Source of the DNA: Emiliania huxleyi CCMP1516
Taxonomy: Eukaryota
Reading direction: 5' to 3'
Length of the DNA: 64,000 nucleotides
NCBI RefSeq assembly: GCF_000372725.1
Contig: NW_005201851.1
Coordinates: forward strand, 405,179-469,178
Under the pieces are notes generated by a model, which was given only the letters and a program-made list of their open reading frames with translations, did not search any database and was not told where the DNA came from. Numbering within the stretch: the stretch's first letter is position 1; each line of letters begins with the position of its first letter. The translations under genes and the position numbers were made by a program. This document shows, in pieces, positions 2,966 through 64,000 of this stretch.

Positions 2966-3080
2966 ATCAGGATCGAGACTGTAAAGCCGAGCACCGACAG
3001 CCGCCCCGGGCCCCCCCCACTCTGAAACGCCGTCAAAAACGCTTTGAATGACCCGGTTTGCTGAATCCGACCAGCGCTCT

Positions 3081-14221: not shown

Positions 14222-17102
14222 TTACACCGCCTTGTCCTGCCGGGGTGGCGCGGGGCGACTGGCGCGGAGAGCGAGGGCGAGCGTGACGAGCCGCTCGACG
14301 AGTTCGCCTGCAGCAGAGGGCAAACGCGGTGTGTGCCGCGGAGACGCGGGCGGGGGCGGGGGGACGCGCGCTGAGCACACCGACGCGTCCGACCCAGCGC
14401 GAGTCGGGCAGCAGATCGCCCGTGGCGGCATCGAAGCATGGCTCCTCGAAGCGGCGGATCGCAACCTCGGGCGCGTTGACAAAGGTGACGTCGATGAACG
14501 ACCCGATCTGACGCAGCGCCTGCTGCCCCCGCACGCCGCCGCCGCCGCCGCCCGACGAGAGGATGGCGCCCGCCTTGCCCGCCCAGAGGTTGCCTTGCGT
14601 CGGCACGCGGGAGGCCCAATCGATGGCATTCTTCAGCGCCGCAGAGATCGAGTAGTTGTGCTCTGGGCAGGCAAAGAGCACCGCGTCGGCCGAGCTGACG
14701 GCGGCGCGCCAGCTGCTGACGGCTCCTCGTGTCGATCCGCCCGCCTCGTCGAGGTCCTGCGAGTAGAGCGGCAGGTCGCCTGCTCACACAGAGCCGCGGT
14801 GAGACGCCCTCGACTGCGGCCCTCCCGCGGGGAGGAGAGCAGCAGGTGTACCGATGGTGGCGAGACGCAGCTCCACGCCGCGCTGCCGCGCCGCCACCGC
14901 CGCAACACGCAGCAAGCCAGCGTTGGTGGAGGCGGCGCGCAGCGAGCCGCAGACGCCCAAGAGCACGAGCGGAGGCCAGGCATCCGGCAGCGGCAGCGTG
15001 TCCGGCGGCGCAGAGGCCGGCGCGGCGGCGGGAGGCTTGGCGGCCTCCGGGTTGCGCTTTTGCGGCCGCTGCTCAGAGCGCCGCGCCTGAGGCGGGAGGC
15101 CGGGTCGGAGATCGGAGCACCGCAATCGGCGGGAGTCTTGTGCGTGTGTGTGTGTGCGTGTGTGTGTGTGTGTGCGTGCGTGCATGCGTGCGTGCGTGCG
15201 TGCGTGTGTGTGTGCGTGTGTGCATGTGTGTGTGTGCGGGCGCTTGTGGGTGCGTGGGAGGTGGGGGGCGCCGGCGCCTTGTGACGGATCGCTATCGTGC
15301 CCGACCCTACCACGGCACCCGTCACGCGAGCGGCGGCCGCGGCCGCCGCAGCAAACGAGGGCGACCTCGGCCGCTCGATCGGCGTCTCGCTCACCTAGCG
15401 CACGGGCGGGCGAGGCGCGGAGATGCTGCCGGGCGGGCGCCAGGCCTTTGCCTTTGGGGCCCGCGGCGAGAGGGAGGCTGGCGTGGCGACACGCGGGGCA
15501 GAGGAAGTGGAGGCGAGGAGGTGGGAGGAGCTGGCGGGTGCGAGAGAGGAGGGCGGTGTTGTGAGGAGATGGTGAGGAGGAGGTGGTGAGGAGGTGGTGA
15601 GGTGGGGAGGGGGCGGGGAGGGGGCGGGGAGGGGGCGGGGAGGGGGCGGGGAGTCACCTCGCTCGCGTCGCAAGAGACGCTCAGCTCGCGAGTCAGCTCG
15701 CGAGGCGTATGCGGCGAGCCGGTCCCGTTGGTCGTGTCTCCCACCGCCGCCGCGCCCGCGCCGTTGGGCGCCCACGGCGGCGGCTTGGCTCCGCGGTACA
15801 TGGAGGGGGAAGGAAGGGGCGACTTGTCAAAGTCCTTCGAGCGGCCGCGCGAGCGGCGCGACTTGGGCGACTGCTTCGTCGGCGACGAGGCGCCCGACCG
15901 GCTTCGAAAGGACGCCGCCTATCGGAAGGCTCGGAGCAGGCTGCAGGAGGTCGCAAGACAAGTCCCGACCGGCCGTGCAGCGACGCCGCCGGCTTTGGCG
16001 AGCCGTTCGGCGGCGCGGAGCTCTTGGAGGTTGGCGTCGCCGGCCTGGCGCGCGCCGCGGCGCCCGAGGCCGCGCCATCTCCCGAGGCAGCCCTCTCTGG
16101 CGCCTGTGCTGCTGGCTCTGCGGCTGCTGGCTCTGCGGCTGCCGCCGAGGAGAGGAGGCTCGAGGATGAGCCCCCCGTCCCAAAGTCGTACTTGCCTCCT
16201 CCGGCGCGCATGGTCTGCATGAAGTGGGGCTTGCAGTAGACTCCGCCGGACAGGTCCATGCACCTGCGGCGCGACAGAGCGAGGCGGGCAGCGGGGAGGG
16301 GAGTGAGAGGACGGGGCGAGGGGAGGGTCGCGAGCCACACGCTGGGAGGGCGGTCCAGGCAACCGCGGCGGTGGTGGCGGCGCGTGCTCGCGCGCGGTCG
16401 GACGTGTTCGCGCGTGGGGGGCCGGCCGCGCCAGTTGGAGGGCGAGAGCTTGATGTTGCACTCGATGCAGCGGAAGCAGGTGTTGTGGAAGACCTGATCC
16501 TTGGCGCTCACGCGCTCGGCCGCGTACACGGTCTTGTTGCAGCGCGTACACTTCTCGCCGCCGCCGCCGAACCGGCCGAACGACGAAGAGCGCATGATCT
16601 TGGAGCCGGAGCGCGGCGCCGGCGAGGCGGTGGCCGGAGCCGGGACGGGAGTGCACACCGGAGCCGGTCCCGGAGTCGGTGCGGGAGAGGACACGTGTGC
16701 AGGCGATCGAGTCTCGCCGTGGGCGGTGGCCGGAGCGAGCGGCCTCTGCGGCGTCGCGGCCGCCTTACCGTTGCTGCTGTCGCTTCGGCGCGGCGTGGAC
16801 GGCGGTGACCGTTCCGATTCGGTGTTGACAGTCAGAGTGCCGCCAGACGTCTTGAGCGCCTGCATGAAGTGCGGCTTGCACCACAGCCCGCCGCACGGGT
16901 CCATGCACCAGGACGACAGCGTGAGCTTCACGTTGCACTCCTTGCACCGAAAGCACGCGACGTGGAAGATCTTGTCCTGCGCGACCGCCCTCTCCGCCAC
17001 GTACACCGTCTTGGCGCAGAGCGCGCACTTCTCGCCGCCGCCGCCGTAGCGGCCGAACGAAGAGGAGCGGCGCACCAGCGCGGGCCTCTCGTTCTCGGAC
17101 AT
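14222..17102 (-). CDS. Multi-exon protein: two LIM domains + Ser/Pro linker + NADPH-dependent FMN reductase (flavodoxin-like) domain
   Basis: LIM: CALCAKTVYVAER...FHVACFRCKEC...WCKPHF and CTRCNKTVYAAER...FHNTCFRCIEC...YCKPHF. Reductase: GVCGSLRAASTN, DLPLYSQD, ADAVLFACPEHNYSISAALKNAIDWASR, WAGKAGAI. Exons join in frame through GC/GT-AG introns. Confidence 0.7.
15138..15237. repeat. (GT)n/(GTGC)n microsatellite in an intron
   Basis: Seen directly. Confidence 0.9.
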
Positions 17103-17861
17103 TTGTAACCCACAGCTACACAGCGCCTAGTTCCTACCAAAAGGTGCATGCAAAAGAAAATCGTCGTGGCCACGCATCATGCTGCGCATTGGCGAGCAAT
17201 CGCGTAACGGAGGGCTGCGATCCAGGCTGCGTCTTATTTGGGCCGCCTTTTGGCGACTTCTTGCGCCTCCCTTTCTCTCTTGCCTTTTTTTTTAGAGCGC
17301 CTTCGTTGTTAATAGTACAAGCCCAATGGTCCCTTGCAAGCGGTCCCTTGTCGCAGTCGCACACACGCACACGCCGCGCCGCACCGCGCGCCCGCCCGCT
17401 GCCCCGCCCAGGCGGGAAAGAGATGAGCTTTTTTTCCATGCGGATGTGACCGCGCGAGGTGGCATGAAGGTTGCTGCGAGAATCAGACGACCTGGTCCTT
17501 TTTCGGGGTTATCAGGCACATAAGGGCGGCGAGGGTGTGATGCTGATGGCTGACGCCTCCGCCCGGCTCTGCGCGTCTGCTGGAGTGCCTTGGCGACGCT
17601 GGTGACGTCGGAGTGACCCGGCACCTGCTTGTGGTGTGGGGTCTTACACAGTGCTTGACATAAGAGGGCGATCTGTCCTGATCCCAGGACTGATGGTGAT
17701 GCTTGGTAGCTACCCACATTCGCTTCACTCGACCAACAGACCCACCCTCGGCGGTGGCCGCCGCAACCTCTTGATAATAATTTAAATGATAAGTCACGAA
17801 GCAGCCATCGTAGAGAGTGGCACGAAAGAGTGCAAGCCCCCCCCCCCCCCCCCGGGGGGCC

Positions 17862-19281: not shown

Positions 19282-19666
19282 GATCAGTGTGCCTGCTGAG
19301 AGCGAAGGGCCGTGCGTCTGTGCGAGGATCAGGTGGGAGCGGGCGGAACGCTGATGTGAACTTCTTTTTCTACGGCGCCCGTGGTGTTACCTGTGTGAGA
19401 CAAGTGTGTGCGTGTGTGTTGGCCTGTTGCACTCTCTGTTCCCAGTTTTCTAATTGGCGAAGTTTCATGCAATAGCTTAAAAAATCTTACATGTTACAAA
19501 ATAAAACTAAATAAGGGACCGGTGGGCGGTGCAACCACACGGGTTTGGGGTTTGGCTCCGGAGTGCCCCACCCGCTCCCAGCGCGGCGTGTGCCTTCCTT
19601 CAGCGGCTGTTCACCGGCATGGGATCTGTGGAAGCTTCGATCGATCCGCTGTTCCGCGGCGACGAC

Positions 19667-21182
19667 TCACGACCCGTCGCGCGGGTCGCGCAACGTCGTC
19701 TCGGTCAGCGCAACCCGCGAGAAACTTGCCGTGCACGCCTGCCCTGTCGGGCACTGCGCCAGGAATCCGACCGACAGCGGCGCGCTCGGCTCGCGCAGGC
19801 AAAAGATCCGGGTGAGCGTCCATGCCTCTCCTCCGTCGTGCGCGTAGTGGAAGGCGAGGGCGGCGCCGAGCTTGGAAATGCGCAGGCGCACCGCCCCGCC
19901 CTCGACCGCCGCGCCGTTCGCGTCGTCCGAGATGCCGCGCGTGACGACGGAGACGACGAGGGGCTTGCCCTCCGGAGAGAGCTCGTAGCAGCACTTGCAC
20001 CAGTCGCCTGGCCCCTGGTGAACGAAGAGGGTGCCTGCGGGAAGCTTCCGAGAAGGTTCAGGGAAGGGCCCCGGGTCGGACTGCCCCAGCTGCAGCAGGG
20101 CGAGTTCCCGCGTCGAAGAGAGACTTGTGTACCACCTCCACGCGCGCCGACAGCTGCCAGTCGCCGGGCGGCGGCGAGAAGACGAGGCACGGCGCGTTTG
20201 CAAGGCCGGAAGGCATTCCTTCGCCGGGCGGAGGGTTGAACCAGTCCGTCCTCGCGCCCGCCGTCATCGTCAGCACGCCCTCCTCGACCGACGCGGCGCC
20301 CTCCACGCCGCCAAGCCAGCGCAGCGCCGGAAGGCCGGAGAGGGAGAGCCCAGCGCCGGCGGGCGCCGCCGAGTCCGAGCCCTCAGGCTCAGCCTCGCGC
20401 GGCCGTTTGCGCGCGCCGTCGGCACCACCCTCTGCGCACGAGCGGGCGAGCGCCTCGTGCTCGGCGATGCCCTGGCCGTATGCGGCCGCGTCCTGTAAGA
20501 GAGAGAGGGAGAGGTGAGTCGCATGGTTGCTTGTGGCAGGCGGCGGCGGCGGCGACAAAAGCAGGGTGGCCCATGGATAGCAGTTCCACACATCCTCCAC
20601 GTTCTCGCCCGCGATGTACGTCACGTCGTCGGGCAGCGAGCCCGTCTTTGGCTTGGCCTTGTTGTGCACCTGCCGTGCCAGCAAGGCACGTGTGGAGGTG
20701 TGCGAAGGGAAGTCGGGCGTGACATTCCGACGCCACCACATAGACGCCCACCGCTGCAGGCGCTTGAGCTCCTCGACGGCAAACTGGAGCGTCGCACGCG
20801 TGTCGTCGACCTACTTCAAAATCAAGAATAAATGCGCGGCGCTCGGAGGCAGGCGCGCCAGCGGAACACCTCATCAATGATGAGGACTCGGCGGCCACGG
20901 ACCAGCGAGCCAAACGTGCCGGGCGCCTCGTCGAACCACTGCTTGCAAATCACGGAGGAGTTCGCCGTCTTTGTGGCGTCGTCGTACAGCTCGAGAGAGA
21001 TGGCGAGGATCGGCTTTTGTACCTCGGTCCGTAGCATCCGCGCCGGTATGAAGCCGCCGCCACCGATCGCAACGGACGTCGGGCGCAAACGCCTGAACCT
21101 CGGGCACCGAACCGCTCACGGTGGCGGCGATCTGACTGTAGGAGAAGTAGCGCTTGCCATCGGGCGCGAGGAAATTGCTCAT
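19667..21182 (-). pseudogene. Xanthine/hypoxanthine phosphoribosyltransferase (fungal Hpt1/Xpt1-like) fused to DUF1349; two apparent frameshifts
   Basis: PRT motifs AIGGGGFIPARMLRT, VLIIDEVDDTRATL, VVHNK, WNCYPW. DUF1349 motifs TDWFNPP, FDAGTLF, VVSVVTRGISDDAN, VGFLAQCPTG. Frame breaks at ~21075 and ~20760. Confidence 0.7.
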
Positions 21183-21260
21183 CGCGACGTTGCACAGCCG
21201 GCACAAGCCGGAGGGTTACTCGAGTAGGGTCCTTGTGGACCGGGGTAGTCGTATTGTCTT

Positions 21261-21659
21261 TTATCGCTTCGGGTCGCTATCGCAAACCCTGTCAGCAGAG
21301 TCTCCTACGGGAATGTACGTAAGAGCTACATACACTGAGAGAGAGCAGTTGCAAAGATCAACCGCCTTGCGCGCAAGGCTCAACGCTCGGGCGTTGACCG
21401 CAGTGGGAGCGGGGCGGGGCTGCAGCAGCTTGGCGGCGTCGGCACGGCCGCACTCTGAGCGAGCGTAGGCGATGGCCGCCTCTTCGGCGGTGTCGAAGTA
21501 GCCGAGGTGGACACGCTTGCCGCCATCCCGCACATGCACCTGAAACTTCATATTGCGGCGGTCGAAGTTCACGTTCTTGTAGCCAGTCGTGCTGTTCTTG
21601 AGGGTGGCCGGGATCAACACGAGGCGCTCTGACGACGCGGTCCGTAGCGGGGCCATCAT
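21261..21659 (-). CDS. Single AP2-like DNA-binding domain protein (possibly truncated)
   Basis: TTGYKNVNFDRRNMKFQVHVRDGGKRVHLGYFDTAEEAAIAYAR is an AP2/ERF-type motif. Confidence 0.7.
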   Translation of the reverse strand: MMAPLRTASSERLVLIPATLKNSTTGYKNVNFDRRNMKFQVHVRDGGKRVHLGYFDTAEEAAIAYARSECGRADAAKLLQPRPAPTAVNARALSLARKAVDLCNCSLSVYVALTYIPVGDSADRVCDSDPKR

Positions 21660-22777
21660 GCAGCCGGAGCACGTAGATTTTCGCGAGTTTGACAATTGGG
21701 ATTCGATTTGGATTATCACAAGGCAGCGTGGGCACCTAAAATCATTGGCCAGGCAATCGTCTCGCGGGCGTTTTGGCGAGTGCAGAAACATAATGCATAT
21801 ACGTAGTACGTCAGCGCCTCCAGGCTGTGGCGCCAGGAAGGGGTGCGTATGCGGATACATGATACGTCATGCGTAACGCGGTCGTCGATGGGCCTGAATT
21901 GATAAAATTACGCTGAGAAAATTTCTGAAACGGCGTGCAGCAGAGTCACCGACGAGTCGGTCCGCGTGACTCCTCGTGTCCCGTACCGTTCTCACACATC
22001 CATAAACTCACTTTGGCCTCACTGAAGCCTCAATCCTGAATCCTCAGTTTAGATTAGGACGGCCTAGCCAACTCTTGTCTCTTGGTGGTCCACGTCACCT
22101 CATCGAGGTACTGGGCCCGCGTCAGCTCCCCGGCCATGCATGGCAACACAAAACAACATCTCTCTCTCTGCATGGCGCGATGCGTCTGTTCGGCGAGCAC
22201 ACCGCGGCCTGACGACAGGTCGTCCATCGAGACCTTTTTTCGAGGGCAATCATGCCCTCGTTGCGTTAGTGTGGAAGCAGCAGCCACCAAGTGGGATGAA
22301 GGCCGCCCAGCAAGGCGCCGCTCGACAAGGCTGTACCACCTTCGTACGATGCATTCTTTTTTCCCGTCGCCCGTCTTTGCGTCCTCCGCCCGTACAAAAG
22401 CAACAAGGGAGACGAGGGTGGGTCACAAAACAGCGCGCCACAAGGCGCTCAGAGCGGAGAGTTGGACAGCGACACACAATGTCTTCTCCGCCCACCGCCG
22501 TTCTCAAGCTGCGCCGCCTCGCGCGCAAACAAAGTCGCGCGCGGCAGCGTTGACCGCACGGCCTACTCGCCCAAGTACTCGCTCTCTTTTATGTCCCACC
22601 ATGCAGAGCCCATCTCTCTCTCTGTTGTGCGAGGCGTGAACCGCGCCATTCGCTCTCACCTGGCAACCCTGTCTGCACGTCTCGCGCGCGCGTGACAGGG
22701 CGACGACCATCGAGAGACAGCTCACACTCGATGCGTCTGATCGTTTCCGGCTTGCACAATTTGGGGGGTGCCCGAGC

Positions 22778-23804
22778 ATGATGTTGCGGAAGGGTAACCA
22801 CCGTCGGGAGAGTTGTCCGAAGTTCGCCGACGGAGGTAAAGGGTGACGGCCTTCGGCTCAGCGCCCTCGTTCAAGCGCACCACCAAGCTTATGGTTGAAG
22901 GGCTCGGCGAGGTCCGCCTCGTGTGCGAGCGTGAGTCGTCCGAGTCGCTAAAGCTCTATGTCGAGGCGGACGCGAACGCATGGGAGAACCTCGCCGTCGT
23001 TTCGTCCGGCTTCGAGGTGTCCATCATGGCCCCGTCCGGCTGCGATCCCTACAAGCACGCCTTCCTGACATTCGGCGCAGGTGGGCACCCGCCGTGGGAC
23101 GGCCGCCAGTTCAACGGCGAGCGCCCCGGCGGATACGGTGTGCCCCATCTGGACGTGCACTTCTTCGTCGTCACGCCCGCGGAGCGCGAGGCCCTCACCG
23201 GCACCTGCAAGGTCTTCGACCCCGGCCCCGCCGACTCGAAGGGGCAGCTTCTTCAGTGCAACGAGACGGCGCCCGAGACTAGTGCCTTCATGAAGCTCCC
23301 GCCCGCCGAGTACATTACGGGCTTCTCGCACGATGGCGCCTTTGGCGGCCATTCGATCGATTCCACGGCCTTCACCTTGTGCCCGACGACGACCTGGCGC
23401 CCGGCGGGCCCGCGCATTGCGTGAGCACCGGCCCGCACAGCGGCGGTCCAGCCGGGTGGCTCGATTGCCACGAGCAGTTTTTGGGCTCTGTGACGCCAAA
23501 TCCGACGGAGGGCTCCTTCGTCGACAAGGACTGCACTTGCGGCTACTGGGCCGATCAGATCTCTGCCATCGTCAACGTCTACGATGGGCAGGTGCTCGGC
23601 AACGAGGCGATGCCGACCCTCGCCCTCGCAGGCCTCCTGCGCAACGGCGAAGTGCCCAACCCCTTCTACAAGCCGTACCCGCAGGCCGACAAGTACCAGA
23701 CCGCCGGCCACCGACCGGTGAGTGTGATGGCCGCTCTCGACCCAAGCACGGTCACTTTCATGACTGGCCTTGCGCTCCACCCGGAGTACATGGAGGCCAA
23801 CTGA
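22778..23804 (+). pseudogene. DUF5602/TTHB210-like protein, frameshifted
   Basis: GHPP...YGVPHLDVHFF, then in a new frame HGLHLVP...YDGQVLGNEAMPTL...PQADKYQTAGHRP. Frame breaks at ~22842 and ~23360. Confidence 0.55.
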
Positions 23805-24548
23805 GCGCGAGCCGCAGGCCGCGCGACTTGCCGCGCGGACGACGCCCGCCGCGGGCTCCCCTGCGCGCGTCTCCTGCCTGGTGAGACAGTCGGTGAGACC
23901 AAGGGAAAAGAATGGCCAGCGCTGCCGTATTTGCCATTGCACTTAGCTCTTAGGAGGAGGTGCATGACTGGGGCTGGATCCAACATGCTTGATGCTACGA
24001 GCACACGCGTATGTAAAGCTGCTTGCGGTGACTACATGGATCATTGCCATTTGGCCGTTTCTGTCATCGACATCGTGGTCTGGATCCTTCATCCTTTGGT
24101 TCAACATTGGTTTTGAAATTTCAAGACCGACCCTCACCTCTACTCTATTACAGCTGGTGGTCACGGGCACAGCATGAGTTGTGCGGTCGGAGGTGGTGCT
24201 TGCGGTGGAGCATTCAACTGTGCTGGTCCTCCTCTCGGGAATCGGTTCTGTGCCTTCGATCTGTGCCTGTGCTCAGTCGGGAGATCTTGCTCTGGAGGGC
24301 TGCATATCTAGCCTCACTGGGAGCCTGCCTTTGGGTCGTGAGGGCAGGGGCCAGGCATCTCCTGTGCGCTGTGGTGCATTCTTGGCAGCCAAGGAGCAAA
24401 GCACGCGGCCCTGGCTAGCTGTGGTGTGGCCGGGAAGCCGTGCTAAAGTTGCGTGCCCTCCTAAAGATGCGGGACCCACAAGTGCTCCACACTAAATGTA
24501 CTGCAGCTGCCCGCACCTAAAGTGAACTAAATGTGGCGCTAAAACACA

Positions 24549-24626
24549 CTAAATATGTGCTAAATATGTGCTAAATACGTGCTAAATATGTGCTAAATAT
24601 GTGCTAAGTATGTACTAAATTTGTGC
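24549..24626 (+). repeat. 11-bp tandem repeat CTAAATATGTG (~7 copies) in an AT-rich island
   Basis: Seen directly; ACTAAA motifs continue to ~24720. Confidence 0.9.
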
Positions 24627-25190
24627 TCTAAAGATATATACGCACTCGAACACACACTAAAAATAGCGCACTATCCACTAAACTATCACTAAATCTAAAA
24701 TTCATTTACACGCACTAAAAATTAAGACCCCCAGAGGCGCCCTCCTCATAGCGGGGAGAGCATCAGCGATCACAGGGTGGGGGCGGAGCGAGACGGGCTG
24801 ACGGGGCTCGGGGGAGACGAGGGAACTCGCTACTCCTCGGAAATCAAGTGAATTCCGTTCATATATACACAACACGCCTCTCTCTCCGTGTCAGTATCAC
24901 GGCCGACCCACAAAACTCTCGTAGACGTGCGCTGCGTGCGCGCGCGCGGAGACAAGGGACACGCGGACAGACGGAGCGCCGCAATACCAATACTAACGAA
25001 TCCCTCACAGGTCACAGACGACAAACCAGAGGTCACGATACGCCCTTGCACAGTCCACAGGAGAGCGTCCCCCTTCCCCGAAGAGCGAGCCCTCTGCGGG
25101 CATTGTCCGCGCCCCGCACGCCGCCGCCTCGAGAGGCGAGGCGGCGAGGCGCACGCGCGAGGGGAGGGGGGGGGGGTGCGAGCCAGCCAC

Positions 25191-28047
25191 TCACTCGAAG
25201 GTGACGGCGAGACGCATGCCGAAGTAGGCGGTGGCGACGTAGTAGGCGAGGTACGCGAGGAGGGCGACGGCGACGGCCGGCGAGCGGTGCACGTTGACGG
25301 CCTTGTCGAAGGTCCACATCCCAAAGAGCTTGACGAGGAACTGCCTACGCGGCGAGGGGCTCCGAGCCGGTGATCAGGCCGCGAGCGAGAGCGAAGCGGA
25401 GCGGAAGGGGGGGGGGGGGGGGCTGCTTGTGCGGCGCGTAGGGCGGGAAGCGCGCGGCGAGCAGCGGCTTGAGGACCGTGTACTCGTCGACGGCGGGCGA
25501 GCGCGAGAGGACGGCCTAGACGGGGAGGCTCAAGAGACTTGCTGGCGGGGGCCCGCAGAGAGGCGGGGGCGAGAGGCGAGAGGACGCGGCCTTCTCGTGC
25601 GTAAAGGCGAGGAAGGAGCGGTGCGCGTGGTACGAGCCCATCCCCGACGCGCCTGGCCTCGGGCGAGCTCGGGTCAGCTCGGGTGTGTCTCGGCCGATCT
25701 CGGCGTCTCTCGAGCCCATCCCGGACGCGCCGACGCCGCCGAAGGGAAGGTCGTGGTTGGCGATGTGCATGACGCAGTCGTTGATGCAGAGCCCGCCAGA
25801 GGTGGTGCGCCTGGGGGAGGGAGGGGGGGTGGCGGTCGCGCGAGCCCGTGGCAAAGACTCGCCGCTTGACGTCCCCCGGCGGCACATCTCGGGCTCATCT
25901 CGGGCTCATCTCGGGCTCATCTCGGGCTCATCTCGGGCTCATCTCGGGCGCGCCGCTTGACATCCTCCACCACCGCCGAGTCGGTCGCGAAGCAGTAGAG
26001 CGCGAGCGGCTTGCCCGTGGGGAGCGCCTTGACGAAGCTGACAACCGCCTCGAGGTCCGAGTAGCGGCAGACGGGCAGGATCGGCCCGAAGAGCTCGTCC
26101 TGCATCGCCTCGCAGCTGGAAAAGGCGCGCCAGTCGCCGCCGTAGTCGAGGACCGTCGGCTCGATGTAGCGCTCCGCCGCGTCGGTCCGCCCGCCAGAGT
26201 AGACGACGCTGGGGGGCGCGCCGCGCACGATCGCCTCGAGGCGCTTGAAGGCGCGCTCGTTGACGCAGCGGCCGAACCACTCGCTCTTTTGCGGGTCTGC
26301 GCCGTAGAACTCCTTGATGGTCGCCTGGAGGGGGAGGGAGGAGGGTGTGTGTGTCCGTGTGAAGCGTCTGTGAAGCGTCTGCGGAGTGTCTATGGTGTGT
26401 CTGCGGAGTGTCTATGGTGTGTCTGTGGAGTGTCTGCGGAGTGTCTGTGGTGTGTGTCTGTGGGGCGTCTGCGGAGTGTCTATGGTGTGTCTGTAGAGTT
26501 GTGTCTGTGGGGGTGTCGCCTTGAGCAGCTTGAGGAAGGGCTCGGCCACCGCCTCGTGCACCAGCAGAAAGTCGGGCCGGATGCAGGTCTGGCCGCCTAG
26601 AGGGAAGGGACGCGCCTTCTCTGCGACTCACCGCGCGTGGGAGACCGCCGGACGACGCCCTCCGCCCGCCGTTGATGAAGGTGCCCCAGACCTGAGCAGC
26701 AGGGGAGGGGCGGCGGGGTGGGAGGGTGGGGCGCTCGCGGCATCGTGTGTTCGTGTGCTCGGCAGGGGCGGGAGTGAGGCGGCGGAGCAGAAGTGTGGCC
26801 ACGTGTCTCCTCGAGCGCCCTCTCTCTCGTTGACAGGGAGGCGCACCCTTCTCCCGCGCTAGTCTGGATGCAGATGCCGGTAGGCGCCACTCTCCGCGCG
26901 GGCGCGGGTTCGGACTCACGCAGGTACAGGTGGGGGTGCATCTACCGCGCGGACGAGGCGGCGGGCGGCGTGGCCGAGGTCGGCCGAGCGGTCGACGATG
27001 GCGGGGGACTTGCCGCCCAGCTCGAGCAGGCAGGGGGTGAAGTGCTTGGCGGCCGCCTGGTGGTGATCTGGTGGTGATGCTGGTGGTGCTGGCGTACTTG
27101 CTTCAGAAGGAGTGACACACGGCTCGAGGGGTCACTCCTTCTGAAGCGAGGGGGGGGGGGGGGGCGAAAGAGGGGGGAGGGGAGGAGGGGAGAGGAGGGG
27201 AGGAGGGCGGGGCGGTGGTGCGAAGGGAGGTGCGAGCGGAGGTGCAGACGCAGGGGCGATCGGGCTGGCGCCTGCAGGATCTTCCCCACGAGGTGTCTAG
27301 GAGGTGTCTAGGAAGTGTCTAGGAAGGCGCCTGCAGGATGATCTTCCCCACGAAGCCCGAGCCCGTGAAGAAGATTTTGTCAAACCGCTGGTCGAGAAGC
27401 GCCGTCGTCACCTCGCGGTCTCCCTCGGCGACGACGATGGCGGCGGGGTCGAGGTACTGCTGAACGAGCCGCGAGATGACGTGCGAGGTGGCCGGCGCGT
27501 ACGAGCCCGGCTTGAGCAGCGCGCAGTTGCCGCCCGCGATTGCGCCGACCAGAGGCGCAAAGCACATCTGGACCGGGTAGTTCCACGGCCCCATGATGAG
27601 GACGACGCCGAGCGGGTCGTGGACGGTGTACGAGCGCGCGGCGGTGTTGAGCGCGGCGGTGTCCGTGTAGTGCCGCGCCATCCACTCGCCCAGGTGGGAG
27701 AGCGCCGTCTCGATCTCCTTTTCGACGAGGCCCATCTCGGTCGAGTACGCCTCAAACGCCGACTTGTGCAGGTCCTCGTACATGGCGTCGCAGAGCTCCT
27801 GGTTGCCCTCTCTGAGGAGCCGCCGCAGTGCGTGCAGCTGGCCCACGCGCCACTCCTTTGAGAAGGTGTGCTCCGACGCAAACGTCCGGCGGAGCGCCTC
27901 CATCGCCGGCACAATGTCGGCCGCGCCGAGCGAGCCAGAGTGAGGCTTTCCGAAGGCGGACTTCTTGCCCCACTTCTCGTAGCGGTCGATGTTGGACTTG
28001 GGGTCGCTCCCCTCGACGGGGAAGGCCTCGCTGCGGGTGGTCGGCAT
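25191..28047 (-). CDS. ALDH3: Aldehyde dehydrogenase family 3 (fatty-aldehyde dehydrogenase-like, C-terminal TM helix), ~9 exons
   Basis: [42 protein letters not shown] (catalytic Cys), [29 protein letters not shown]; hydrophobic tail [19 protein letters not shown]. Confidence 0.92.
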
Positions 28048-28885
28048 CCTGAGCCCTGGTTGATGAGAGGAGACTTGTCCGTGGAGGAGCAGCTAACTAA
28101 ACCCGATTTCTTTTACTTTTCCACGAGCGAAAGAACAAACAACTCATGCGGCAGAGAGGCAACGCACGAAAAGAATTCCCGGTTTGAAGATTTGTTTTAT
28201 CGTTTTTCACTGCGCCCTCTGTTGTGTGTTGAGCACTTGAGCACTGGATAGGGTCGATTCCGCGTGGTACGGGACCCCTCCCTCGTGCCTCGATCGTCTC
28301 GCCCTCCCTCGCCCTCTGTTCATTTGCGAGAGATTCTCCCGCTTTCTGTTCATTTGCGAGAGATTCTCCCGCCATTCTCTCGCTCGCCATTCTTCCTCCG
28401 TTCAGATGTAATTCGCCCGCTTTTCAAATACATTTTGTGGCGCTTTCAAGAGATTTTTACCGCAAATTTAGTGCTCTTCATGGCAGTTTAAGGCAAGCGT
28501 GCCTTATCCTGGGACCTGGCTGGGTCCGGCCGGCGTGGTCGGGAGCCCTCGACTCCTCGGCGAGCTCTTTCCTGCCTCAATGACATTGCAACAATGAGTG
28601 CGAATCAGTGGACAGTGCGTCTTACTTAGTCCTTACTTAGCTGTCGAGAGCACGTCTTGCTACTAACTATGCACGACAACAAAACTCCCTCGCGCGCTTA
28701 ACGGGGTGAATTCTTCTTCCGCGTTTCGTGGCCATACCCACAGGGCCCCCCAGCACATCGCCATGATCACGCAAGCGGAGGATCATCTGCCCTCGAGAGA
28801 AGACAATACCGCTGAGGACTCGGAAGCGGTGAGCAATGGCCCCGTGAGCAGTGCGTTGCACCAACGATGTGTCATTTCTTACCGC

Positions 28886-49456: not shown

Positions 49457-50923
49457 ATGTCCACCCCGCCGCGCCGCCGCTCGCGCCGCCTCGCCACCGC
49501 CGCCACCGCCGCTCCCTCGCCAGACACGCCGCCGCCCGCCCGCCTCCTCGACCTCCCCACGGACCTCCTCGTGCGCGTTGTCTCTCGCTGCGACCCCGCC
49601 GACATCTCTCGCGTCGCGGCCGTCTCGCTCCTCTTTCACGCCTCGCTTGCGGTGGAGGGCATCCGCTTGTGGGCGCAAGAGCGCGTCTTCGAGCTGCCGG
49701 CGCAGCCAGAGGGCGAGAGCTGCGCCGTGCGGTGGCTGTGCTTGTCTGCGCTGCTTTGCGAGTCCAACCCGCCGGCGAGGGCGGCGGCAGGCGAGCGGCA
49801 CAGCGTCTTCATCGACGGCGAGGGGCGGCTCTCGTCGTGCGGCAGGGCGCCGGATCACGTCGCAGGCCTCCTTGGCCACGGTGAGGGCGTGACGCGGCTC
49901 AACACGCCGGCCCGCCTCACTTCTCCGCTGGCCGTTAGCGTGTCGGCAGGAAGCAGCCACAGCCTCGCCCTCACCACCGCCGGCGCGGTCTGGAGCTGGG
50001 GCTTTGGAGGCGACGGCCGGTTGGGCCACGGCGACGAGCAGCGCCAGCTGCTGCCGAAGAAGGCCGAGGCCTTCGCTGGCCAGCGCGTCGTCGCTGTGTC
50101 GGCTGGAGCCCGCCACAGCCTCGCCCTCGCCGCCGACGGCTGCGTCTGGAGCTGGGGCGCTGGAGGCTTTTGCCAGTTGGGCCACGGCGACCTGCAGAAC
50201 CAGCTGCTGCCCAAGAAGATCGAGGCCTTTGCTGGCCAACGCGTCGTCTCCGTGTCGGCTGGAACATGGCACAGCCTCGCCATCACTGCCGACGGCGCCG
50301 TCTGGAGCTGGGGCGCTGGAGGCGACGGCAGGTTGGGCCATGGCGACCAGCAGAACCAGCTGCTGCCCAAGAAGATCGAGGCCTTTGCTGGGCGGCGCGT
50401 CGTCGCTGTCTCCCCTGGACTCGGCCATAGCCTCGCCCTCACCGCCGACGGTGCTGTCTGGAGCTGGGGCTGGGGCTTCTATGGCCAGCTGGGCCACGGT
50501 GACGAGCAGAGCCAGCTGCTGCCCAAGAAGATCGAGGCCTTTGCTGGTCGGCGCGTCGTCGCCGTGTCGGCTGAAGCCGCCCACAGCCTCGCCATCACTG
50601 CCGACGGCGCCGTCTGGAGCTGGGGCACTGGAAGCTACGGCAGGTTGGGCCACGGCGACCAGCAGAGGCAGCTGCTGCCCAAGAAGATCGAGGCCTTTGC
50701 TGGCCAGCGCGTGGCCGCTGTCTCGGCTGGAACCCACTGCCTCGCCCTCACCGCCGATGGCGCTGTCTTCACGTGGGGCAAGGGCGAGGACGGCTGCCTA
50801 GGCCACGGAGAGGACCTGTCAGACCAGCTGCTGCCCAAGAAGGTCGAGATGTGGGCGAGCCGGCCGCCGACGCCTACTTCCTCTGATGTAGAGGGCAGCA
50901 GCGGCGGGGAGGACAGTGATTAG
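49457..50923 (+). CDS. F-box-like + seven RCC1 repeats, paralogue B, intronless
   Basis: N-terminus nearly identical to paralogue A; same 52-aa repeats. Confidence 0.9.
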   Translation: MSTPPRRRSRRLATAATAAPSPDTPPPARLLDLPTDLLVRVVSRCDPADISRVAAVSLLFHASLAVEGIRLWAQERVFELPAQPEGESCAVRWLCLSALLCESNPPARAAAGERHSVFIDGEGRLSSCGRAPDHVAGLLGHGEGVTRLNTPARLTSPLAVSVSAGSSHSLALTTAGAVWSWGFGGDGRLGHGDEQRQLLPKKAEAFAGQRVVAVSAGARHSLALAADGCVWSWGAGGFCQLGHGDLQNQLLPKKIEAFAGQRVVSVSAGTWHSLAITADGAVWSWGAGGDGRLGHGDQQNQLLPKKIEAFAGRRVVAVSPGLGHSLALTADGAVWSWGWGFYGQLGHGDEQSQLLPKKIEAFAGRRVVAVSAEAAHSLAITADGAVWSWGTGSYGRLGHGDQQRQLLPKKIEAFAGQRVAAVSAGTHCLALTADGAVFTWGKGEDGCLGHGEDLSDQLLPKKVEMWASRPPTPTSSDVEGSSGGEDSD

Positions 50924-51560: not shown

Positions 51561-54500
51561 TCACCTCCGCGGCGCCCGGCCGACCCCAACAATATCCACG
51601 TCAAGCCGCCCGCTCGCCGAGTCGACCGAGCGCACGCGGACGCGCACCGGCCTGCCGGGCGCCAGCCGCGGCACGGCTCGCCGCGCGCCTCCGTCGGCCG
51701 CACCGGCGGGTCCAGCGGAGGGCGCGCCGGGCGCAGCGCCCCACCGCGCGTGGCCGAGGAGGGAGGTGACCTCCCGCAGCCGCACCGTCACGCGCTGCCG
51801 CCTGTCGGTGTCGCCCTCGGCCGGCCGCACAACCTTGACGACGACCGCGTCGAGAGTCGAGAATCGGACCGAGCCGAAGCGGCGGCGCGCCGCTCCGCCC
51901 GAGCCGGCGCCGGCGGAGGACCGCGCCGCCTGCCGCGCGCACACCTGCGTCGGGAGCCGCCGTGTGTGGGGGGGGGGGGGGGGGGCTTTCCCCAAAAGGA
52001 ACGGGCCTCAAAAAAACGGGCGAGGGAACCCCCCTGAAAAGGGGGCGGGAGCTGGCGGCCGTGAGACGCGGGGTAGAGGGGGAGTCTCCGGGAGGACGCA
52101 ACGGGGAGGGGCGGGGCGGTGACGGAAGAAGCTGCGGTGGGAAAGGAGAGGCGCTCGGACACACAGGAGGCGCTTGCGCGCCTGCTCGAGCTCCCGCAAG
52201 CCGGCCAGGGCGCGGGCCGAGGCCTGCTGCGCCGCCAGCCGCGAGCGGATCTCGCCGCCGCGCTGGCGCACCCACCTCTCGAGCGCGGCAACCTAACCAC
52301 GCGAGAGGTGTGAAGAGACGCGCCACGCAGCTGGGGCCCATCCACGCTTGTCGCGGCCGCCTCGCCCGCCCCCATCCCCGCCTCGCCCCGCAGCAGCGCG
52401 CTGAGCTGCCGCTGGGCGATCAGGTCCGCGTACCTGCGGCAGGGAACCGAGCAGACTCAGCGGACGTCCCCACCGCGCTGCCGCCGGGCGAGCGAGCGCG
52501 GCGGTGTACCGACGCAGCGGCGCAGTGGCGACGCGCTGGTGCTCCGCCTGCGGCAGCCGCAGCGTGTTCGCGGCACGCGCCGCCCTCCTCGCCGCGTAGG
52601 AGTACATGCCGAGCGCCTGCACGAGACGGCGCAGGCAAGGCTCAGGAGAGGCGGCAGGCCGCGGCGCCGCCAGTGCGCGCCGAGCGGCGCCTGGGCGGAG
52701 AAGCGGCGACCTCCCTTGTCATTCTCTACTCACCGCGAGCCCACCCGTTGCCGACCCGCGCCTGGTCGACCAGACGGCGAGCCGACGTGTGCACCGTCGC
52801 CTCCGGCCGCAACCCGCCGCCCGCCGTCCCCTTCCACCGCACAGACGCCGCCGCCGCCGCCGCCGCCGCGCCGCCGCTGCCTCCGCCGGCCGCTCGAGCC
52901 GAGACGGCGCCTCCTCTTGCGCCGCCGTCCTCGCGCCGCTGGAAGATTGCGTCGAGGGCGGTGAGGTCGGAGTGGACCTGGCGGGGAAGGAGAGGCCACG
53001 GCTGAGGCGTGAGCCACTTGCGTCGAGGGACCGCCGGCTGGAGAGAGGCCTCGGAGGTCATGCCGTCGCCGGCTAGCAGCGAGTCGACCTGTTGGAGGGG
53101 AGGCAGCGGGCTAGCCGAGATGTGGCCGACATCTAGCCGAGGTGTGGGCGAGGTGTGGGCGAGGTGTGGGCGAGGTGTGGGCGAGGTGTGGGCGAGGTGT
53201 GGGCGAGGTGTGGGCGAGGTGTGGGCGAGGTGTGGGCGAGGTGTGGGCGAGGTGTGGGCGAGGTGTGGGCGAGGTGTGGGCGAGGTGTGGGCGAGGTGTG
53301 GGCGAGGTGTGGGCGAGGTGTGGGCGAGGTGTGGGCGAGCAATGAGTCGCACCTCGTCGAAAGAGAGGCAGCGCACGGGCGGCACCAGAGAGCGAACCAG
53401 CTGGCAGTGCCGGATGTGGCCGTACAAGTCGAGCTGCACCAGGGCGGTGAGGCACTCGTTCGGTGCGTCGTCGGAGAGGGCGGCGGCGGCGAGCAGCGGC
53501 GGCGGCAGCATGTGCAGCGGCGCGGCGGCGGCGTACAGCGACTGGAGCCGCAGCCGCGCGACCTCGTCGAGCAGCGAGCCGGGCTGCACCAGGGAGGAGA
53601 GGTCTGCGATGTGCACACCTGCTCGGGGGAGCGCACGCCTCGTCTGCACCGCAGCTCGGGACCACGAGGAAAGCTCCAGCGCTGCGCACGCCGATGGTGG
53701 CGGAGGCGGCGTCGATCGAGACAGCGTCATCCCGGAACTCCGTGTTGCCGCCTACACAGCCACCCCTGCCCCGTCACCGCCACCTCTCGCTCATGCCCCT
53801 CCCAGACCTCCGCCTCTGGCACGCCGTCAATCGCGTACGCGCGCGGGAAGCGGGCGCGCAAGTCGACGCGGTGGTCGAGCTGCTCCGAGACTGCCTCCGC
53901 ACCACCGCACCCCTCCCTCGCGTCGCCTCCTCCTCCGGCCCCCGGCTCGCCCCACCCAAACATCCCCGCCACCGACGGGGCGGCCGAGGCGGGGCGGCCG
54001 GCGGCCGGGTCGAGCAGCGGGGCGGTGCGAGCGAGCGAGCGCCTCCGCCTCCGGACGGGGGCCGCCCCTTTTGGCAAAAAAGGGTGGGGGGGGGGGGGGG
54101 GGGACGCTGGCCCCAGGGCCTCCTCCCCCCTCCGAGAGGGGCGCCTGGTGCCGCCTCTCGCCGCCTCTGGGAAAATTTGGGCGCCTTTGGGCTGCCTCTG
54201 GGCGCCTTTCAGCGCCTCTCGGCGCGCATTTGGGCGCATTTGGGGGGGTCTCCCCTCGTGCGCCGCGTCGAGCGCGGGGCGCGGGAAGGGCTCGACGAGG
54301 TCGAGGGAGGCAGGCGGGTCCCCACCGCCCTCCTCCTCCTCCTCCTCCTCCTCCTCCTCCTCCTCCTCCTCCTCCTCCTCCTCCCTCACCCACAGGCCGG
54401 GGGACAGCAGCAGCTCGCTCGCACCCTTAGCAGTCGCTGGCAGCGCAAACGACTCGAGCACCCGCGCGGCGGCGGACGAGGTGGCGGAGACGCCGATGGC

Positions 54501-54991
54501 TGCCTGCGCGGCAACGGATTTCGGCCGCATTTCGGCCGGATTTGGGCCAGACATCGTCCAAATCTCCGGCAAACCTCGGACAAGCCTCAGACACCCCCCC
54601 CCCCCGGGACCATCTCGGCCCACTCTCTCGATCTCGGCTCGATCTCGCCATCTCCAGCTCAGATAGGAGCTGCAGCTCCGACGGCGCCCAAGAGATCGCC
54701 TCGCCGCCCCGCGCAGCCACGAGCGACTCCCGCAGCGACGCGTGTGCGCGCGTCACCGCCTGAGCACGCTGCAGCGCCTTGAAGCCGCCGCCACTCACCG
54801 CCGCCGCCCTCCACCCGCACACCTCGCCGCCAGCCGCGCCGCGATCATCCGCCTTATCGGCGGCGAGGTCCAGCGACTGGCGCTTGAAGAGGATCCCCTC
54901 CTCAGACAGCAGCTGCGCCGCAGCCACACGCTGTGCAAAGACGCCGCCGCCCGCCGCGCCCGCGCCGCCCGCCGCGCCGTCGCCGCCCGCC

Positions 54992-55028
<37 letters not shown>

Positions 55029-55831
55029 AGGCGATGGCGGAGAGGAAGGGGGCGAAGAGGACACGCGCGGCCGCGTCGGGCGTCACGGCGCGCCGCTTGG
55101 CCGGCTGCGCGAGCAGCCTCGTCCAGAGCGGCCTGTGGCGTGGAGAGGGAGAGGGGAGGGGGAGTGGGCGCGGAGAAGAAGGCGGCGCACTGTGTAGGCG
55201 CCTGCTGCGGCGAGGAGAAAGGGTGCGGCGGCGATGGAGGCGGGGTGAGGGGCGCTCGAGCGGGACGGCGGGCTGCAGGAGAGCACAGGAAGCTGCACGC
55301 GCGGAGGCATCTAGGCAGAGCGGGCCTCAAGTCGAGCGCTGGCGGAGGCAGGTCGGCGAGCAGCGCCGCAGCACTGTCGTGCACCGCCGCCCACTCAGAG
55401 GGGGAGGAGGGGAGGGAGGCTGGAGGCTCGGGCCAGACGCCGACGAGCTGGCCCGCGTCGATCTTGATCGCACCGTCGCGGCCGTCGTTCCCTCCGCCGC
55501 CGCCGGCGGAGGAGGCTGCCGGAGGAGGAGGCGCCGCCAGCTCGACCAGCAGCGCTCGCGATGGCGAGGGTGCGCGGCCGCGAAAGGTGCCGACGTGCAG
55601 GCTGTTGGCGTGCCAGACCTCCACCACCGACCCCTCGCGCAGCGTGCCTCTCGGAGGCGGCTCAATCAGGGGCGGCGGAGGCGCCGCCGGCTTGGAGGGC
55701 GACTGGCCCTTGCCTGGCGACGCGGCGCGCCGAGGGCCGAGGACGGCCGCAGGGCAGCGAGGCTGCGTGGATCGAGGCGGTGCTAAGAGGGGCGTCGTCA
55801 GGCCGACGCAGAGGAGCAGGTTTGCGAGCAT
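51561..55831 (-). CDS. RNase II/R family (RNB + S1) exoribonuclease, probably plastid-targeted; many introns
   Basis: Signal-like MLANLLLCVGL; RVDLR...YAIDG...DDAVS; VHIAD; LHMLP; spliced TAPLRRYADLIAQRQL; S1-like VRVRVRSVDSASGRLDV. Confidence 0.8.
53139..53338. repeat. 11-bp intronic minisatellite (GAGGTGTGGGC)n, ~18 copies
   Basis: Seen directly. Confidence 0.95.
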
Positions 55832-60877: not shown

Positions 60878-63800
60878 TCACACGGAGTTGAAAGGCGGCG
60901 GGTAGCTCTGCGGGTACTTGAGCAGGAGCAGCGCCTTCGCATTGTCCACCCAGTGCTGCCAGCCGAGCTCGCGTAGCAGCTCGAGCCTGAGGGGCGTGTC
61001 ATTGACGTGTCACGGACATGTCGCGGACGCGCCTCTTCCCCCGAGCTCACGCAGATCGAGCCTCAGCTCGAGCTTCTCCTTTGGCGGCGGCCCCTTCTCC
61101 TTGGCGAGGTGCTCGTCGAGGGCGGCCAGCGCCGTCGCTGCGTAGCCGTGCGCGCGGTGCCACGCGACGAGCAGCTTCCAGTGCTCCTCCTTGGCCGCCC
61201 AGCGATGCAGCGCCGCGACGGCGGCGTCGAGCGCCTCGAGTGCCGCCTTGCTGTCCGCGCCGTCGCCCGCGCCGTCGCCCGCGCCGTCGCCCGCGCCGTC
61301 GCCCGCGCCGGCCGCCGCCGCCACCTTGTGCAAGTCGGCGAGGGCGGCGGCCTTGAGGTGGAGCGCGCCGACGAGCGCCTTCAGGCCATGTCAGGGACAC
61401 GTCCGGGACATGTCACCGACACGGCCTCGAGGCGGAGCGCCGCGACGCGCCTTCTTCTGCGCCTCGTCCACCTCGCGCCGCTGCTTGGCGCGCTTGTCGT
61501 CCGGGTCGACGTGGGGCACGCCGAGCGCCGCCGCGATCTGCGTCGCGTCGAGCAGCGAGAGCACCTTGCGAGGCGGGCGAGGCGGGCGGTGCTCAGCGTT
61601 GCGGGGGGCGCGCGCCCAAGGGAGGGGCAGCGGGGCAAAGCCGCGCCTCGTCCGCCGCCGCCACTACTCCGCGCAGCAGCTCCTCGCCGGCCCGCCGCCC
61701 CTCCGACATGGCCTCTGCGTGCTCGAGGTGCGCCTGCAGCAGCGGCAGCAGCGGCGGCACCTCCGGAGGCGCGTCGGGCGGCGCCGCCGCCGCGGCGCAC
61801 TCGGCGCGCAGCTCGGCGAGCAGCGCCTCGTACCTAGCCGCCGCCGCCTGCTCACACCCCGCCACACGCGTGAGGATCGGTGCCCCTTGCCGCCAATTCC
61901 TCGTCCGCCTCGCCGCCGCCCGCCTCGTGCGGCAGCGGCGCAGCCTCGCCAGCGGCGGCCGGCTCCTTTGGCGGCTTGCACTTTGGCGACAGATTGACCA
62001 GCTGCGAGATCTTGAGCGCGCGCAGCGCCGCCTCCATCCGATGCGGCGCCGTCTCGTCCTCCTTGTCCATGGACGCCGGCTTGGGCGGCTCCTCCTTCTT
62101 GGCGGCCGGCGGGACGAACAGCGTCACTGGCCAGCCGCCGGGCCGCTTGCCAGCACCGACCCCCTCGGAGGACAGCTTGGCGAAGGTGGCCGAGCCGAGG
62201 AGCGTGTCTCCCGGCTCGGCGATGGCGGGCGCGGCCGGCGACGCCACGTGCAGCGCAACGCGTGTGTGCGGCTCGAGGAGGCGGCGCAGAGGCGGCTTCG
62301 GGCCGGCGGCGGGGTCGTCGAGGGCAGAGGCGCGGCTCCAGTGGAAGGAGAGGGCGACGGGCGCGATCTGCAGGTCAACCACCATCGGCATGTCCTTGAG
62401 CTTCTCGAGATGCGCGGGCGAGTCGTGCCGCAGCTGGAGCCGCACCTGCAGGATGCAGCGGCACGATGAGCACGTCGAGCGACCGCCTTTGGGCCGAGAG
62501 AGATTGGGCCGAGAGACGGCCAACGAGTGCGAGGAGCGCATCTCCAGCTGCGGCGTCTCTCGGCGCGCGCCTCGTACTCTCCGGCCTTGAGCTTTGTCTT
62601 GTCAACGTAGTAGTCGCCCCAGCGCAGCAGCCGCTTGTGCGCGTCGAAGAGAGCCCACAGCTGCGCCTCGTACCCGCTCTCGTACAGCTGCGCCGAGAGC
62701 GACGGGAAGCGGACCGTCACGCCTTCGCACGCCTCCTTGAGCGCGAACTTGTACGAGAGGAGGTAGTCGTAGATCGGCGTCTTGCCGCCGACGCCCGCGT
62801 CGCCGATGCCGACGTCGCCGCACGGAGCGGCGGGCGGGACGAGCTTCGCCTGGAGCGGGCGGCACGCGCGGCGCAGCGTCTTGAGCGAACCCTCCGGCTC
62901 GACCTGTCGACACGTCGTGGACGCGTCATGGACGTGTCCGCCGCGCCAGCGTCTCGGACAAAGCCCTCGGGCGTCGACCGACGTCCGGCGGAAGGAGTGT
63001 AGCTCGAGCGAGCTGAAGAGGGTCCGCCCGTCGAGCGTGAGCTGCTCCACCTAAGAGAAAAGGTTCCGAGAAGGGTCGCGGCAGGGCGCCGTGCGCCCGC
63101 GCGTCGAGCGTGGGCTGCTCCGCCGAGGGCGAGAGGCCGAAGAAGTCGAGCCGCACGTCGAGCTCCGTCTCGCCGAGCGACATCCACCACTGCGCCACCG
63201 CAACCTCCAGCGTCACGCCGCCGACGCACGCGACGGTCGAGACGTACTCCGTCGCCGGCGCGCCAGCCCCCTGCGCCTCGTCAGGCACGCCCATGGTGAC
63301 GCGCCGGGTCTCAGACGACTGGCCGATGTGCTTCTGTGGCAGCAGCTGCGTGAGCGAGTACATGTAGACCACGCTGCCCGCCGGCTCGCGCGAGCGCGGC
63401 GCCCCCCGAGCGCGCAACGTCAGCGTCGCCCAAGTCGCGCCCCGCGGCGGGACGACGAAGCGGCGCTCGATGTGGCCGGGGGAGAAGGCGACGCGCTCGA
63501 AGGCGACGTGGCACGGCGCGTGCGGCGCGGCGAGGTTCGCGTGCGGCCTGCAGACGGTGACGGGGAGCGAGAAGAGCGGGCCGCGCCGCGGCGAAGACGA
63601 GTCGTGGCCCGCCACCTCGGCGTAGTGCGCGCCAGGCGGAAGCTGGCCGGGCGACACTTTGAGGTTGAAGCCCTTGCCGCCGTGCGTGAGCGCGAGGAAC
63701 GGCGCGCAGCTCAACCACGGCGCGCTTGGCTGCAGCGTGACGCCGACGTCGAGGGAGACGCGCTGTGCGTTGGGCGCCTCCTCGTGCAGCCTCGGGCGCA

Positions 63801-64000
63801 CGAAGACGTCGACACCAACCTCCGACGCGCTCGAGTGCTGCGGCTCGCGTAAGTAGACGCCGCGCGCACCCGCGCCCGCGGCGGTCGAGCAGCCGTGCGT
63901 CGTGGCGCTGAGCTCAAAGCGCACGTCACAGTGGGCGTGCCCGCCGTGCTCCTCGAGCCAGCTCAGCGCCGCGCCAACCTGCAGCAGCCCGCGCCCGAGC
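60878..64000 (-). CDS. TPP2: Tripeptidyl peptidase II, C-terminal part (5' end beyond the window), multi-exon
   Basis: GRGLLQV, RGVYLREP, GPLFSLPVTV, FSPGHIERRFVVPPRGATWA, LEVAVAQWW, LYESGYEAQLWALFD, LEKLKDM, C-term LGWQHW...KYPQSYPPPF. Confidence 0.92.

Follow-up and report, generated by a model that had tools for sequence, protein, structure and literature searches.

Some introns of the haptophyte Emiliania huxleyi CCMP1516 have the anatomy exon, copy plus filler plus AG, exon, in which a decayed copy of the following exon's start is joined to repeat DNA of a recognizable family; they are removed from RNA and, in the gene for which orthologues were compared, are absent from a sister lineage. 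In the window, by which we mean the whole 64,000-nucleotide stretch of contig NW_005201851.1 that was analyzed, 8 of 17 RNA-confirmed introns, in three genes, open with such a copy of 20 to 40 nt. The copies that an earlier note on this DNA had described in three introns of the TPP2 (tripeptidyl-peptidase II) gene are therefore real and more widespread than described. We think it probable that these introns arose at a staggered break or template switch in coding sequence, where the overhang was duplicated and repeat DNA was inserted, and were kept if they could be spliced.

Splicing and exon copies

The 17 introns comprise all those of TPP2 in the window, all those of an aldehyde dehydrogenase (ALDH) gene, and two of a gene that, judged by eye from its cysteine pattern, appears to be LIM-domain-like; the other introns of 15260-28100 were left out of the count. 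RNA contigs skip all 17 (7 in TPP2, 8 in ALDH, and 2 in the LIM-like gene), 15 of them in two studies: six of the seven TPP2 introns were skipped in both X11 and X13 and the seventh in one, and 9 of the 10 ALDH and LIM-like introns were skipped in two RNA studies. No skip of any of the 17 was found in the DNA runs X7, X8, and X10, of which the metagenomes X7 and X10 were those compared for TPP2. The three introns of the earlier note, for which the coordinates, lengths (73, 75, and 75 nt), and quoted sequences were correct, were skipped exactly in X11 and X13 and in neither X10 nor X7. The RNA junctions slide by 2-9 nt, and for each of the 17 introns a single placement has GY...AG ends and preserves the spliced product, giving 15 GC and 2 GT donors. 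The spliced TPP2 product is an open frame of 847 aa plus stop, and that of ALDH one of 557 aa plus stop. Removal from mRNA, GY...AG ends, and a restored frame are the properties of U2-type spliceosomal introns. For read mapping and gene prediction, the junctions of copy-bearing introns are ambiguous. Two joints found in DNA only (X10, 63222>63282 and 63352>63422) enclose sequence that is unknown, and at position 61974 the TPP2 coding sequence has a 6-nt in-frame insertion polymorphism that is a short tandem duplication without filler.

Features of the window, with positions numbered from its first nucleotide
Feature	Position	Strand	Evidence and remarks
TPP2, 3' two thirds, 7 introns	60878..64000	-	Pfam PF21223, PF21316; RNA joints; exits window
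TPP2 intron, GC-AG, 73 nt	63051..63123	-	RNA joint 63049>63123, X11 and X13
Exon-start copy, 29 nt (25/29), of 63050-63022	63095..63123	-	In intron 63051..63123; holds donor
Filler, CCTTCTCGGAA-type unit plus AG acceptor	63051..63094	-	In intron 63051..63123
TPP2 intron, GT-AG, 75 nt	62904..62978	-	RNA joint 62898>62974, X11 and X13
Exon-start copy, 40 nt (31/37 aligned), of 62903-62867	62939..62978	-	In intron 62904..62978
Filler, three 11-nt GACACGTCC-type units ending in AG	62904..62938	-	Lag-11 periodicity p=0.005
TPP2 intron, GC-AG, 125 nt, copy not detectable	62446..62570	-	RNA joint and copy scoring
TPP2 intron, GC-AG, 76 nt, 25-nt copy	61848..61923	-	RNA joint; copy p=0.013
TPP2 intron, GC-AG, 82 nt, copy not detectable	61565..61646	-	RNA joint in X13 only
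TPP2 intron, GC-AG, 72 nt	61379..61450	-	29-nt copy (25/29) 61450-61422, then 11-nt-unit filler
TPP2 intron, GC-AG, 75 nt	60987..61061	-	21-nt copy 61061-61041, then 11-nt-unit filler
ALDH gene, 8 introns	25190..28047	-	PF00171; 8 RNA joints
ALDH intron, 78 nt	25653..25730	-	Next-exon-start copy (19/20) followed by 10-nt CCGAGAT-type filler
ALDH intron, 75 nt, ~24-nt copy of next exon start	25516..25590	-	RNA joint in X11 only
ALDH intron, 274 nt	27057..27330	-	Three 11-nt CTTCCTAGACA units, then nested 25-nt copy 27291-27267
ALDH intron, 143 nt	25811..25953	-	Six 11-nt units, then nested 16/18 copy 25877-25860
LIM-domain-like gene intron, 71 nt, 26-nt copy of next exon start	15919..15989	-	RNA joint
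Candidate intron of 79 nt with 24-nt next-exon-start copy	39749..39827	-	Sequence
Candidate intron, 264 nt	53089..53352	-	~19-nt next-exon-start copy, then 18 perfect 11-nt units; sequence

Copies were scored by aligning the start of each intron, with the first 3 nt dropped, to the start of the next exon, and the background was given by about 300 random GY-starting coding 40-mers per intron taken from the same genes. The eight copy-bearing introns scored 7.5-19, each at p<=0.013 against the random 40-mers; one of them, the GCG repeat in the TPP2 intron 61848..61923, is of low complexity and is the weakest case. The three introns of the earlier note each scored above all of their random 40-mers (p=0.003). 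Over the 17 introns the mean score was 5.94, compared with 1.11 when introns and exons were re-paired, and it was reached in 0 of 200,000 permutations; with those three introns omitted it was 4.5 compared with 1.10, again reached in 0 of 200,000. The similarity of intron starts to next exons is therefore enriched over background. The copy is absent in 9 of the 17. It begins at the donor in nearly all cases, and a further copy-bearing TPP2 intron (61379..61450) had escaped the earlier list. The size of 15-30 bp first given for the duplication fits the copies with 25/29 and 19/21 identities, the latter (61061-61041) lacking one codon of the next exon, and is too small for the second, about 40 nt (31/37). 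A scan of the whole window for copies was dominated by low-complexity repeats and was used to find candidates only.

In L012, a near-identical TPP2 locus in which introns were defined by homology only, the true pairing of seven further upstream introns with their exons was the best of 5,040, and three of the seven scored at least 7. In one of these sequences (L012:980-1047) the intron copy starts GTC where the exon now has ATC and the sister GTG, so that the intron likely keeps an earlier state of the exon. Among control TPP2 introns, from which non-GT calls were left out as unreliable, a score of at least 7 was found in none of the 33 plant-like and none of the 37 green-alga-like cases, the labels of these loci, like those of Phaeocystis-like and Chrysochromulina-like ones, being deduced from GC content, repeats, and the tree.

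The tight size of about 75 nt in the original description holds for copy-bearing introns, which measure 71-78 nt, and not for the set of 17, which spans 71-274 nt. A copy was present in 8 of the 9 introns of at most 78 nt and in 0 of the 8 longer ones (p=0.0004), a relation noticed after the fact and opposed by the 264-nt candidate at 53089-53352 and by a 123-nt intron of locus L004. GC or GT stands at the start of every one of the 17 next exons, compared with 25 of 70 controls (p=5e-7) and a background of 20%, which suggests that the introns without a copy may share the same origin. The donor equals the first two bases of the next exon in 13 of the 17, in agreement with the proposal that GC donors come from exon codons; in the other 4, including the copy at 63095..63123, the exon has GT and the donor GC, contrary to that proposal, so donors also drift to GC after birth.

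Fillers and nested copies

With the copies removed, the fillers of 24 introns were compared in 276 pairs, of which 19 were alike at p<=0.02 (about 6 expected); 10 of the 24 fillers had a 10-12-nt period at p<=0.01. The fillers are 10-11-nt minisatellite families present in both orientations. The 11-nt GACACGTCC-type unit is common to the TPP2 introns 62978-62904, 61450-61379, and 61061-60987, each of two other units has one orientation in some introns and the opposite one in others, and the filler of intron 63123-63051 matches one L012 filler. The view that the fillers look unrelated was therefore mistaken; what is shared is the repeat unit, with no end-to-end identity among the 24 introns and no terminal inverted repeats evident by eye. 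Fillers differ in unit number, orientation, end register, and the last bases before AG, and several unrelated unit types occur within one gene. The CTAGACAC family is of very high copy, with a summed contig depth of 126,935 compared with ~50-140 in single-copy bins (X8). Read and colleagues (2013) reportedly described repeats of 10-11 bp as frequent in the introns of E. huxleyi, which fits the filler families seen here. Filler motifs sought in viral contigs and prokaryote genomes led to no further DNA of this organism. Of seven loci in the viral collection with a CCCTAA-plus-acceptor motif, six were chance matches; one viral-collection contig (L087, ~1100-1170) holds a 54-nt candidate stretch, not counted here, with a 14-nt direct repeat around a telomere-type filler ending CAG.

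Two of the longer ALDH introns contain nested copies of another kind, derived from the end of the upstream exon together with the donor's first 5 nt (27291-27267) or with GCG (25877-25860). Nested copies of the upstream exon end were also found in 6 of 9 introns of locus L023, among TGATTGC-type repeats, compared with 0 of 33 plant-like introns; the 5' copy was not enriched in L023 (6,820 of 50,000 permutations). Some nested copies, in L023 and in intron 27330-27057, contain bases from the very start of the intron, so their template was unspliced. Within the 274-nt ALDH intron, the 5'-most 59 nt (27272-27330, minus strand) end in CAG and are followed by GCGCC, which makes removal in two steps (recursive splicing) possible; no joint for such a short-form splice was among the RNA joints listed.

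Elsewhere in the window, two more intron-rich genes on the minus strand (38226-40283, presumably DMAP1/SWC4, and 52200-55800) have several candidate exon-copy introns and 10-11-nt arrays. Two related intronless genes (36640-38050, minus strand, and 49460-50850, plus strand) have an F-box-like start and 156-nt tandem units that look RCC1-like by eye. A near-identical 1-kb direct duplication (1-1008 and 2220-3230) lies across an N gap; it could have arisen recently or be an artefact of the assembly. In run X8, the summed DNA depth is very high at ~17000-18260, 21270-22980, and 23840-24700, which points to dispersed high-copy repeats.

Orthologues and other lineages

The TPP2 of the sister lineage (P0015/L001-L003) is intronless over residues 1-1352, and L003 is genomic, with a 10-kb flank containing other genes. 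In the protein tree, built without L019 and L028, which have stops in translation, this is the group closest to the window organism (98/97). Intron positions were analyzed in 23 of 80 loci with a spliced aligner that, when checked, recovered 6 of 7 RNA-confirmed junctions exactly. None of 14 intron positions recurred in the 22 other loci, most of which span the gene incompletely; two old positions, 223.2 and 372.1, were recovered as common to L023 and the green-alga-like L053/L057. There were two near-coincidences, 475.0 with 474.2 in L040/L046 (1 nt) and 438.1 with 437.2 in L023 (2 nt). The genomic orthologues that cover the seven window introns are few, namely L001-L003, L023, the distant L006 and L011, and plant loci to about residue 940. 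At informative sites, where the exon differs from the sister, the copy follows today's exon in 36 of 40 cases, so the copies postdate the split from the sister. Since the sister gene is intronless and none of the 14 positions recurs, the TPP2 introns are likely lineage-specific gains; alternatively, the sister lineage could have lost them. No intron-free allele was seen within the species in L012 or in runs X7, X8, and X10, whose contigs drop rare variants. Csuros et al. (2011) could not detect conservation of introns between E. huxleyi and other eukaryotes. The L001-L003 lineage is intron-poor; an intron of L003 (~10694-10800, minus strand) carries no exon copy and its donor, GTGAGC, is canonical, and the process that makes introns may be off in that lineage.

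A separate clade (99/99), consisting of L004/L005 and L033/L034, has four complete introns, each of which begins with a next-exon copy and continues with a CCCTAA-type fill, at positions that are not those of the window. The copy is 28/30 in L004 and 9-11 nt in the three introns of L033, which have GC donors; one of the four scores at least 7, and the true pairing is 1 of 24, which is weak taken alone. TTAGGG is given as the haptophyte telomere repeat in PMC3622300, and in Calcidiscus interstitial telomeric tracts are described as pervasive (PMC13518057). In the CCCTAA lineage, the branch-point motif CTAAC lies within the telomere repeat, which a single base separates from an acceptor (CCCTAG, found in L033).

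Origin of the introns and comparison with known systems

In the origin that we favor, a staggered DNA break or template switch would occur inside an exon, and repair would duplicate the overhang and insert repeat DNA between the two copies. The insertion would survive only if the spliceosome removed exactly copy plus filler, for which the copy would have to start with GT or GC and the filler to end in AG; tolerance of GC donors would widen the target. Newborn introns of ~65-78 nt would then see their copy decay and their donor drift toward G(C/T)GCG; they would be lengthened when the process struck again or the repeats expanded. Local duplication of 14-40 nt with filler at an existing donor would give a nested copy and a longer intron. 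The filler would come from different sources by lineage: 10-11-nt minisatellites in the window, telomere-type CCCTAA in L004/L033, and TGATTGC-type repeats in L023. At the intron boundary the flanking exon is directly repeated, above background, as in intron gain by break repair. Since random staggered breaks do not obviously predict a copy at the donor together with no mirror copy at the 3' end, selection or an AG-ending filler would be needed. We infer break, enzyme, and selection from these sequences, and likewise the choice between break repair and a mobile repeat element.

The choice of a mobile element leads to an unlikely but serious alternative, that the fillers are remnants of mobile repeat-built Introners or products of a reverse transcriptase (telomerase-like, or retro-element tails), inserted with a long target-site duplication (TSD) and bringing the acceptor while the duplication supplied the donor. 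The filler families, the very high copy of CTAGACAC, and the start of the copy at the donor would all be expected of such elements; Gozashti et al. (2022) list five E. huxleyi families (37 and 70 nt, 653 copies) and describe families that have their own 3' site and draw the 5' site from the TSD, and telomere repeats are described as entering breaks, sometimes with target duplication (PMC7215372). The published E. huxleyi families may be the fillers found here. The duplications, however, vary from 14 to 40 nt, compared with 3-9 bp given for Introners, and the variation among fillers and the mixture of unrelated unit types in one gene also speak against this origin. The alternative of Rogers, in which a whole exon segment of 65-78 nt was duplicated head to tail and its 3' half later overwritten by minisatellites, predicts the 5' copy and rests on a mechanism demonstrated elsewhere (PMC3443670, as excerpted), but it also requires that the end of the upstream exon be copied at the 3' end of the intron or that the match extend over the whole intron. 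Neither was found: the mirror score was 0.91 compared with 0.83 in the 17 introns (76,763 of 200,000 permutations), the seven L012 introns were likewise null, and, aligned to 80 nt of downstream exon, the copies stop matching at 21-40 nt while still 84-95% identical. Only 8 of the 17 upstream exons end in AG. We regard this origin as improbable. The lack of a 3' mirror copy is also what places the donor inside the first copy and the AG in the filler, as the earlier note had it.

Another conceivable origin is that repair rewrote the 5' ends of older introns with spliced mRNA or cDNA as template, in an intron loss that was broken off and left the old 3' part as the filler. This would account both for the exact start of the copy at the junction and for the working acceptor at the filler's end. 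It is similarly improbable, given that 0 of 14 positions are old by orthologues, that the sister is intronless, and that the nested copies carry intron bases and so were not read from spliced RNA; the copies here are too short to span a second junction, where such rewriting would show directly. Artefact is the explanation that we find hardest to credit. Chance similarity in GC-rich DNA, or skipping of reverse transcriptase between repeats, is suggested by a GC content of about 70%, the one low-complexity case, and junctions that slide; it is already largely refuted by the permutation and same-gene background tests, by the placement of all 17 skips at GY...AG, and by the open frames that the skips restore, which align with the intronless orthologue.

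The present sample is three genes of one window and one orthologue set. It is conceivable, if doubtful, that prymnesiophytes share an active intron factory, in which telomerase-like or other repeat-adding repair would write repeats into staggered gene breaks, with the overhang becoming the donor and the repeat the rest. If so, this factory would have built most E. huxleyi introns and would explain their GC donors, their 10-11-nt repeats, and the lack of intron positions shared with other eukaryotes. Where most newly gained introns come from is still debated. Of the introns studied here, about half keep a target-site copy long enough to align and date, with an identifiable filler family, so that the break-repair route becomes countable across a genome for which many strains are sequenced; three separately reported oddities of the species are linked, and telomere repeats are indicated as the seed of introns in a related lineage. 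Long copies with simple-repeat or telomeric filler, at a share of about half, were not found for a haptophyte in the literature searched, on which the supplements of Read 2013 and Huff 2016 may bear. It is this variant of break-repair gain that is new; break-repair gains, Introners with a donor from the TSD, and tandem-duplication introns are already known.

Comparison with these systems draws on portions of the published accounts. Introners resemble the present introns in that one splice site is brought in and the other comes from the duplicated target, and in forming families of similar introns; their TSDs are short and of fixed length (3-9 bp), whereas the copies here are long and variable (14-40 nt), with no conserved ends seen. 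In the tables used from Gozashti et al. (2022; PMC9860276), TSDs and terminal inverted repeats (TIRs) of the E. huxleyi families are undetermined in four and absent in one, and several Introner families are listed for Phaeocystis and Chrysochromulina. In the tandem duplications of Rogers (PMC3443670), as here, an exon duplicate becomes an intron in place and leaves the protein unchanged; there, a duplicated AGGT supplies the two splice sites and the intron derives from exon throughout, whereas here only the 5' part does, the acceptor coming from the filler, and a duplicated AG|GY at both sites was not found. The GC donors (15 of 17 here) and 10-11-nt repeats agree with E. huxleyi (Gephyrocapsa) introns as described in PMC4028052 and PMC7779022, where, in the passages used, GC donors are ascribed to the GC content of the genome and exon copies and intron origin go unmentioned. 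The GC content near 65% and the marine source of the sequencing runs likewise fit this species or a close relative. Interstitial telomeric insertions (PMC7215372), which place telomere repeats at breaks and show direct target duplication in 3 of 66 horse loci, match the CCCTAA-type introns of L004/L033; unlike these, they are not presented there as an intron source, and the window fillers are not telomeric. In Daphnia pulex, 33 neointrons attributed to double-strand breaks carry repeats of 4-12 bp, and the introns are AT-rich, from a source not known (Li et al. 2014; PMC4202315). As in the introns described here, the insertion is flanked by a direct repeat of the adjacent exon, and later staggered breaks add internal repeats and length; here, unlike in Daphnia, the repeats are 14-40 nt long and supply the donor, and the filler is a recognizable simple repeat.
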